DNA of 32,000 nucleotides, from contig NC_001263.1 in assembly GCF_000008565.1 (NCBI RefSeq), positions 1,612,649-1,644,648 on the forward strand. The letters run 5' to 3'. A program made the translations under genes and the position numbers. The notes beneath the pieces were generated by a model. That model was given only the letters and a program-made list of their open reading frames with translations, had not been told where the DNA came from and ran no database searches. Shown here piece by piece: positions 1 to 4,746 of the stretch. Numbering within the stretch: position 1 is the first letter of the stretch; every line of letters begins with the position of its first letter. Source of the DNA: Deinococcus radiodurans R1 = ATCC 13939 = DSM 20539 (GTDB lineage: Bacteria; Deinococcota; Deinococci; Deinococcales; Deinococcaceae).

Positions 1-693
1 TGCGGCTCCCAAGTTTGCAGCGGGTGTGGATGTCGGCATCAAGGATTTTGCCATCGTGACCGATGGCGTGAGGTTTAAGCATGAACAGAATCCGAAATAT
101 TACCGCTCCACCCTGAAAAGACTTCGTAAAGCTCAGCAAACCCTGTCCAGACGGAAGAAGGGCAGCGCACGTTACGGGAAAGCGAAAACCAAGCTGGCTC
201 GGATTCACAAGCGCATTGTCAATAAGCGTCAGGATTTCCTTCACAAGCTCACCACCTCCCTGGTGCGTGAGTACGAAATCATCGGAACCGAACACCTTAA
301 ACCCGACAACATGCGGAAAAATCGCCGCCTTGCACTGAGCATCAGTGATGCGGGCTGGGGTGAGTTCATCCGGCAGTTGGAATACAAGGCAGCGTGGTAC
401 GGGCGACTGGTATCTAAAGTCAGCCCCTACTTTCCATCTAGCCAGTTGTGTCATGACTGCGGATTCAAGAATCCCGAAGTGAAGAATCTTGCCGTCCGTA
501 CATGGACTTGCCCGAACTGTGGGGAAACCCATGACCGAGACGAGAACGCTGCGCTGAACATTCGGCGTGAAGCGTTGGTGGCTGCGGGAATCTCAGACAC
601 CTTAAACGCTCATGGAGGCTATGTCAGACCTGCTTCGGCGGGCAATGGTCTGCGAAGTGAGAATCACGCGACTTTAGTCGTGTGAGGTTCAAG
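1..693 (+). mobile_element. Right-hand part of an IS200/IS605-family element (ISDra2-like); the left part with tnpA lies outside the window
   Basis: The tnpB ORF runs off the 5' edge. A subterminal hairpin CACGCGAC-TTTA-GTCGTGTG (665-684) straddles the tnpB stop. I place the element end after GGTTCAAG (686-693), from recall of the ISDra2 right end and because host-like GC3-rich coding of the convergent gene starts at about 696. Boundary +/-5 nt. Confidence 0.8.
2..685 (+). CDS. tnpB: TnpB (OrfB) RNA-guided DNA endonuclease, C-terminal ~227 aa (5'-truncated by the window)
   Basis: The frame is open from nt 2 ([15 protein letters not shown]...). RuvC-I Asp lies in GVDVGIKD and RuvC-II Glu in IIGTEHL. 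A CxxC...CxxC zinc finger (CHDCGF / CPNCGETH) is followed by RuvC-III Asp in [10 protein letters not shown]. The C-terminus ...SENHATLVV matches my recollection of ISDra2 TnpB. Confidence 0.95.
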
Positions 694-709
694 AAGTGCC
701 CCTCCGCGT
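545..709 (+). ncRNA. Predicted omega-RNA (reRNA) of TnpB: scaffold from the tnpB 3' end/RE plus a ~16-nt guide from flanking DNA (694-709, AAGTGCCCCTCCGCGT)
   Basis: In established TnpB biology the guide RNA overlaps the 3' end of tnpB and reads across the RE. Visible helices are CAGACC(625-630)/GGTCTG(647-652), enclosing a CTGC-TTCG-GCGG mini-hairpin, and the 665-684 terminal hairpin. The 5' boundary is not determinable by eye and may start up to ~80 nt further upstream. Confidence 0.6.

Positions 710-1876: not shown

Positions 1877-4746
<2,870 letters not shown>

Follow-up and report, generated by a model that had tools for sequence, protein, structure and literature searches.

An ISDra2 copy at the edge of a Deinococcus radiodurans R1 window: TnpB fragment, omega-RNA, flank-derived guide and its natural target

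The ISDra2 system of D. radiodurans has been described in full detail. TnpB of this element co-purifies with a ~150-nt RNA which is made up of the 3' end of tnpB, the right end of the element and ~16 nt of the flank (Karvelis 2021). It cuts guide-matched DNA next to 5'-TTGAT, at 15 nt from this TAM in the non-target strand and at 20-21 nt in the target strand, and the D191A mutant is inactive (Karvelis 2021). In the role proposed for it, the donor joint left by TnpA excision is cleaved and then repaired from the sister copy (Karvelis 2021). TnpB generates this RNA itself, by trimming its mRNA from the 5' side (Nety 2023). The Meers 2023 preprint and later abstracts describe IS605-family TnpBs as homing endonucleases which act on vacant sites.

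The window analyzed here (the whole stretch of DNA, 32,000 nucleotides) covers positions 1,612,649-1,644,648 of NC_001263.1 from D. radiodurans R1 and starts inside an ISDra2 copy. The best explanation overall is that bases 1-692 represent the right-hand ~40% of ISDra2 (IS200/IS605), followed by a flank-derived guide, with the donor joint serving as TAM-plus-target (probability roughly 0.93). The system is already known and ISDra2 is its reference or type element. Work on this element established the nuclease activity guided by RNA, its TAM and the structure of the omega-RNA, as well as genome-editing tools. The preliminary description of this DNA, which was made from the sequence alone, had stated that the system is in the literature, and this is correct, as ISDra2 is the element where the RNA-guided nuclease TnpB was first characterised.

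TnpB fragment and omega-RNA scaffold

In the ORF list and translation, frame 2 of the + strand runs open from base 2 up to the stop codon TGA at 683-685. The 227 residues correspond to TnpB 182-408 and were found to be 100% identical (E = 4e-154) to the PDB entries 8BF8, 8EX9, 8EXA and 8H1J, which are structures of the D. radiodurans ISDra2 TnpB and carry the title 'RNA-guided DNA endonuclease TnpB'. Pfam analysis identified the OrfB_IS605 core domain PF01385 (86.3 bits against a cut-off of 30.5) and, in fragment residues 119-187, the Cas12f1-like_TNB domain PF07282 (92 bits, E = 2e-26, above the curated cut-off). Residue numbers were taken from the alignment to 8BF8. The coding features are given below.

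2-685, + strand: 3' portion of tnpB, truncated at the window edge; residues 182-408 and the stop codon 683-685 (open frame, PDB identity, PF01385 and PF07282)
29-31, + strand: codon of the RuvC catalytic residue D191, in GVDVG (alignment to 8BF8)
290-292, + strand: codon of the RuvC residue E278, in GTEHL (alignment to 8BF8)
449-520, + strand: zinc finger CHDC…CPNC with C331, C334, C351 and C354 (translation, Pfam Cas12f1-like_TNB)
539-541, + strand: codon of the RuvC residue D361, in HDRDENAA (alignment to 8BF8)

The RuvC triad of D191, E278 and D361 is complete in the fragment and identical to that of 8BF8, and the zinc finger or TNB, a CxxC…CxxC motif, is present between RuvC-II and RuvC-III. 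All the residues behind the earlier reading of a C-terminal TnpB half with three RuvC motifs and a zinc finger were recovered in this way. The same reading had placed the locus as an ISDra2-type TnpB with an omega-RNA embedded in its 3' end. With 100% protein identity and an identical 43-nt right end, the element is, as judged from its sequence, ISDra2 itself and not merely 'ISDra2-type'. The searched protein collection did not contain the ISDra2 TnpB, and the best match there was 84% identical.

The omega-RNA (reRNA) scaffold, with stems 1-4 and a pseudoknot, overlaps the 3' end of tnpB and stops at the right-end terminus. Scaffold nucleotide -n was mapped to window position 693 - n. The construct used for cryo-EM begins further upstream at -231, which is nt 462 (Nakagawa 2023, PMC10097598), and the longer form of the reRNA is ~150 nt (Karvelis 2021). 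The parts of the scaffold are positioned as follows.

577-692, + strand: omega-RNA scaffold, nt -116 to -1, overlapping the last 36 codons of tnpB (30/30 named nucleotides)
577-601, + strand: stem 1 hairpin GGUG.CUG...CAG.CACC with the loop GAA at 588-590 (fold)
588-590 with 688-690, + strand: pseudoknot of GAA with UUC, -5U to -3C with -103A to -105G (Nakagawa 2023 pairs)
609-661, + strand: stem 2, 609-612 with 658-661, enclosing stems 3a and 3b (pairing across 8 related elements)
616-622 with 645-651, + strand: stem 3a (cryo-EM pairing, pairing in relatives)
623-644, + strand: stem 3b with a UUCG loop (published architecture)
665-684, + strand: stem 4, CACGCGAC-UUUA-GUCGUGUG, 665-672 with 677-684, the loop being -20 to -17 (pairing in relatives)

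Conservation of pairing was analyzed in a set of 8 related elements which drew on the Deinococcaceae MAG L001, the Deinococcus plasmids L003 and L016 and the phage contigs L010, L012, L013 and L014. The published stems were paired in 92.9% of the cells, compared with 27-46% when the partners were slid by 1-3 columns. Stem 2 was paired in 100% of the cells and stem 3a in 89%, and 7 pairs had changed on both sides (compensatory in 3/4 pairs of stem 2 and 4/7 of stem 3a). All 8 pairs of stem 4 were 100% paired and invariant, except two one-sided C-to-U changes which are kept as U-G wobbles. In the loop of stem 1 the relatives keep GAA or GGA, the latter giving a U-G wobble in the pseudoknot. The stem 4 sequence has a second role as single-stranded DNA, in which form it is the subterminal hairpin of the right end that TnpA binds, and it is part of the Pasternak 2010 substrate.

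Two helices had been proposed in the preliminary description. The one at 665-684 is the published stem 4 of the omega-RNA, paired in all of the 8 related elements. The other, at 625-652, is a real 6-bp inverted repeat (CAGACC/GGUCUG) which also appears in the minimum-free-energy fold. It was rejected as a conserved pairing, being kept in 68% of the cells against 89% for stem 3a, with which it competes for 647-651. On this comparison of sequences, it is probably not the functional pairing.

Thermodynamic folding of 577-708, by a method which cannot model the pseudoknot, yielded an unremarkable z of -1.57 and recovered no stems of the known structure other than 1 and 4. Rfam 15 gave no match in 1-1500 at E <= 1, nor in the whole window at the gathering score. 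This silence reflects a missing model for the omega-RNA, and a family match is not a defining property of it. Searches of the window for long repeats, tRNAs and Rfam RNAs were all negative.

Right end, flank-derived guide and natural target

In the alignment with insertion-free D. radiodurans alleles, the window was 100% identical from base 693 onward. The ISDra2 copy ends at base 692 (…GGTTCAA), with the junction at 692/693. The empty site reads CCTTGAT/GAAGTGCCCCTCC and the occupied right junction GGTTCAA/GAAGTGCCCCTCC, where the slash marks the junction; to the left of it the insertion-free contigs read …GACTTCCTTGAT. The insertion is situated 3' of TTGAT, and on the right side no base is duplicated or lost (CCTTGAT/GAAGTG versus TTCAA/GAAGTG). 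The following two features meet at this junction.

650-692, + strand: terminal 43 nt of the ISDra2 right end, cleaved by TnpA after 692 (TTCAA^) (Pasternak 2010 oligonucleotide, empty-site alignment)
693-708, + strand: flank-derived 16-nt guide GAAGUGCCCCUCCGCG (empty alleles L005-L008; the ~16-nt length is from Karvelis 2021)

Published data place the end of the element at the same base. Bases 650-692 match exactly the first 43 nt of the TnpA substrate, ending in GGTTCAA, and this substrate is composed of the terminal 43 nt of the right end and, 3' of them, 20 nt of flank (Pasternak 2010, PMC2806898). The last nucleotides of the scaffold are -6G, -5U, -3C, -2A and -1A, and the tetraloop is -20U to -17A (Nakagawa 2023, PMC10097598). 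With -1 at 692, 30/30 of the nucleotides named in that work fit the window, and with -1 at 693 the number falls to 8/30. G+C content is 0.52-0.55 inside the element and 0.64-0.72 outside. An abrupt change to host coding at ~694 had been noted in the earlier reading; its abruptness is borne out by the jump in G+C and the identity with the empty alleles, while its position shifts to 692/693 in place of ~693/694.

A register in which the right end includes G 693 (…TTCAAG) would give the guide AAGTGCCCCTCCGCGT at 694-709 and the target TTGAT+AAGTGCCCC. This was the guide proposed in the preliminary description, and the G which follows TTCAA in 8/12 related junctions (window, L001, L002, L003, L004, L011, L012 and L016) can be read as a conserved terminal base. 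However, a terminal G belonging to the element would result in TTCAAGGAAG, and the window has a single G between TTCAA and AAGTGCC, as the empty allele has between TTGAT and AAGTGCC. As only one G is present between TTCAA and AAGTGCC, G 693 belongs to the host and 692 is the last base of the element. Elements with the same terminus show G, A, C or T after TTCAA (A, C, T and T in L010, L013, L014 and L015, respectively), and a base which varies among related elements belongs to the flank and not to the element. The shifted register also disagrees with the 43 nt of the Pasternak 2010 substrate ending in TTCAA, with the cryo-EM numbering ending in -2A and -1A, and with all but 8 of the 30 named omega-RNA bases. 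It is contradicted by the present data and almost certainly wrong.

The guide is 693-708, on which the empty site, the Pasternak 2010 substrate and the cryo-EM numbering agree. The flank 693-708 is the sequence found directly 3' of TTGAT in L005-L008. These empty alleles read CCTTGAT/GAAGTGCCCCTCCGCG, giving TTGAT-GAAGTGCCCCTCCGCG as the natural target; written as TTGAT+GAAGTGCCCC, the target is present in all four insertion-free contigs, which read CCTTGAT/GAAGTGCCCC. The earlier idea that the guide targets an element-free TTGAT allele holds in so far as such an allele exists and has TTGAT directly before the flank, but the sequence TTGAT+AAGTGCCCC named for it is absent from the empty allele. 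A flank which happens to begin with G makes the guide register easy to misread from sequence alone. Within the window the sole match of the guide is the guide itself, and no second target was found there. The occupied allele reads TTCAA-GAAGTGCC, with TTCAA and not TTGAT before the guide match.

The right-end terminus was also compared across relatives. Its last 30-36 nt (stem 4 and GAGGTTCAA) show almost no base differences between elements which are otherwise very different, at these positions.

660-692 of the window, 3001-3033 of L004, 1296-1328 of L002 and 7853-7885 of L010: conserved terminus
9807-9839 of L012, 6340-6372 of L013 (- strand) and 342-374 of L014: conserved terminus in further relatives

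TnpB identity to ISDra2 was ~50% in the phage contigs L010 and L012 and 34% in L002, a MAG, and tblastn detected no TnpB in the AT-rich element L004 of a C. botulinum plasmid and the phage-contig relative L011. The terminus is far more conserved than the TnpB proteins or the remaining omega-RNA. Of the 12 junctions (window, L001-L004 and L010-L016), 8 had G as the +1 base after TTCAA, 2 had T, and A and C were seen once each. In this small sample L004 and L011, with their common flank GAATTTA, are perhaps not independent of each other. G is also the first base of the ISDra2 left end (Pasternak 2010, PMC2806898). The TnpA-hairpin/omega-RNA 3' module (stem 4 and GAGGUUCAA) might be a horizontally exchanged cassette under both DNA and RNA constraint, or TnpA/TnpB might have a +1 G preference (TTGAT-G); we offer this only tentatively and consider it doubtful. 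To our knowledge, neither idea has been described earlier.

A check for IStrons (group I intron) found no Rfam families in four related loci, including the Clostridium plasmid and phage-contig elements. Other features of the relatives were observed in passing. In Deinococcus sp. QL22, the ISDra2-like element of L016 (440-480) appears to have TTGAC in place of TTGAT before its left end (…GGTGTTGAC/GGGTGAGGGGCACGTGCTCGTGAC), a boundary which was set by eye against the published ISDra2 left end. Its tnpB at 945-2170 (85% TnpB identity) is annotated as two 'transposase' CDSs, suggesting a frameshift. The Deinococcaceae MAG L002 possesses a second, very AT-rich tnpB with the same terminus and a seeming in-frame stop at 780-830 (…AAAAGAAAATAAGAAAAC…). 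This gene is possibly a pseudogene, and a G+C content as low as this is unusual for that genome.

Host gene, proposed mechanism and alternatives

The insertion has hit a lipoprotein-like gene of the minus strand, 13 codons ahead of its stop, and the gene has become a chimera.

624-1679, - strand: lipoprotein-like host gene, 351-aa chimera whose last 23 codons (624-692, stop included) come from the IS (ORF)

The uninterrupted gene encodes 341 aa in L005-L008. In a large assembly collection, the exact chimeric protein is restricted to two ~5-kb contigs, both of which end just inside the IS. The adjoining 6-phosphogluconate-dehydrogenase-like gene (1877-2974) is present on many D. radiodurans contigs (289 collection blocks); four contexts of it are listed, three of them complete chromosomes, and the insertion was found in 0/4. 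As the chimera is rare and the listed contexts of its neighbour are IS-free, the insertion is polymorphic. The number of ISDra2 copies is known to differ among laboratory strains, the published R1 genome having 7 and ATCC 13939 a single one (Pasternak 2010, PMC2806898), and the polymorphism fits this reported strain-to-strain variation.

The host gene carries a lipoprotein-type signal and has no Pfam match on record, and the guide of the omega-RNA runs antisense to the 3' end of this gene. In L005, L007 and L008, which lack the insertion, the adjacent gene has only a faint TTHB210-like match. The glucose-6-phosphate dehydrogenase ORF (2974-4746, 590 aa), which is called alike in all genomes, has an N-terminal low-complexity extension of ~105 residues, rich in Lys, Ala, Pro and Arg, ahead of the usual GATGDLA motif. 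A similar tail is present at the C-terminal end of the 6PGD-like protein encoded upstream of it. The AT skew is very strong, up to 0.62, in window 2700-3300, which holds the gnd 3' end and the zwf 5' end.

The visible part of the copy is TnpB 182-408 and the right end, while the left end, tnpA and TnpB 1-181 lie upstream of base 1. No left-end hairpin was found elsewhere in the window. We take the left junction to be TTGAT/GCTTGAGG (also given as TTGAT/GCTTGAGGGGCGCAC), directly after …GTCCTCGACTTCC. A scan of the metagenome collection gave no match to this predicted junction (TCGACTTCCTTGATGCTTGAGG) or to the 46-nt right end, and a scan of the genome collection returned no D. radiodurans ISDra2 copy, only a Deinococcaceae MAG. 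A literature search found no locus tags for this copy.

No promoter-like site or + strand terminator was found between tnpB and the flank, which is compatible with read-through. From published work on ISDra2, transcription of tnpB would be expected to read through the right end into the flank. TnpB would bind and trim the 3' part of its own transcript to a ~130-150-nt RNA, the last ~16 nt of which would be 693-708 (GAAGUGCCCCUCCGCG). The occupied site would be spared from cutting because TTCAA, and not TTGAT, precedes the guide match. Excision by TnpA, or the presence of an empty chromosome copy, would present the donor joint TTGAT-GAAGTGCCCCTCCGCG as TAM-plus-target. In this joint the cuts would fall ~15 nt from the TAM on the non-target strand and 20-21 nt from it on the target strand, and the element would be restored when an occupied sister or homologous copy serves as the template for repair. 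Our own extension of this scheme is that in D. radiodurans, which is polyploid and naturally competent, a new insertion might be pushed toward all the genome copies. Such homing or retention at this ISDra2 locus is what we infer by analogy with other IS605-family elements, in which it has been demonstrated.

Two other explanations bear on this scheme. The copy could be a decayed or truncated remnant, similar to the degenerate copy ISDra2*, and as such a relic which does not itself make an active nuclease. The window shows no more of it than the C-terminal 227 codons and the right end, and one inactive ISDra2 copy is present in the strain of Pasternak 2010 (PMC2806898). But neither the 684 coding bases nor the right end differs from the active reference. 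The insertion varies in presence between D. radiodurans genomes, a polymorphism which suggests a recent origin, and identical TnpB made from other copies could anyway load this right end and guide. We consider a relic quite improbable; the unchanged visible part and the polymorphism argue for a copy which would be both recent and intact. The other explanation concerns the function, which might mainly be to damp transposition, TnpB and its RNA reducing TnpA-driven excision and insertion instead of acting as a restoring homing nuclease. Earlier genetic work on ISDra2 reportedly found that TnpB lowers the frequencies of excision and insertion, which counts in favor of damping. According to Karvelis 2021, tnpB is dispensable for transposition, which can be counted on the same side. 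However, re-installation of the element at the donor joint would itself show up as an apparent drop in excision. The ISDra2 TnpB has been shown to cut next to TTGAT under RNA guidance, with the same scaffold and other guides (Karvelis 2021), and for related elements a role in retention or homing has been shown (Meers 2023 preprint and later abstracts). Damping as the main function is improbable, and retention through cutting of the donor joint is the preferred reading.

What is gained at this locus is the exact annotation of one natural copy, with its right end at 692, its guide at 693-708 and its natural target. The locus also represents a natural pair of occupied and empty sites in D. radiodurans, usable for studying TnpB retention or homing in the native polyploid host.

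Comparison with known systems

The closest system is the ISDra2 (IS8301) TnpB-reRNA reference, which shares with this copy the same residues 182-408, the 43-nt right end, the 30/30 omega-RNA nucleotides and TTGAT by the target. Within the visible part only the insertion site, and hence the 16-nt guide, differs: here the element interrupts a lipoprotein-like gene situated upstream of gnd-zwf-opcA, while the flank in the TnpA assay is GAGTCCCTTGG…. The homing TnpB/IscB systems of the IS200/IS605 family (Meers et al. 2023, 'Transposon-encoded nucleases use guide RNAs…') follow the same logic, having a guide from the flank, a TAM which equals the TnpA target, cutting of the vacant donor joint and repair from the occupied copy. 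As described there, the experiments used other IS605-family elements, whereas for ISDra2 the cutting has been shown and homing at the native locus would follow by analogy. IS608 of Helicobacter pylori, the peel-and-paste reference, shares single-strand Y1 (HUH) transposition and subterminal imperfect hairpins. It likewise duplicates no target when it inserts 3' of a short, fixed sequence, and it has a right end …TCAA, but its target is the tetranucleotide TTAC and that of ISDra2 is the pentanucleotide TTGAT (Karvelis 2021). Cas12f (type V-F) shares the core of RuvC and zinc finger (TNB), with a weak PDB match to 7L48, and the pseudoknot of its guide RNA is conserved with the TnpB omega-RNA. 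Cas12f works as a dimer with guides from a CRISPR array and a tracrRNA, whereas TnpB is a monomer with one RNA from the transposon end (Karvelis 2021).
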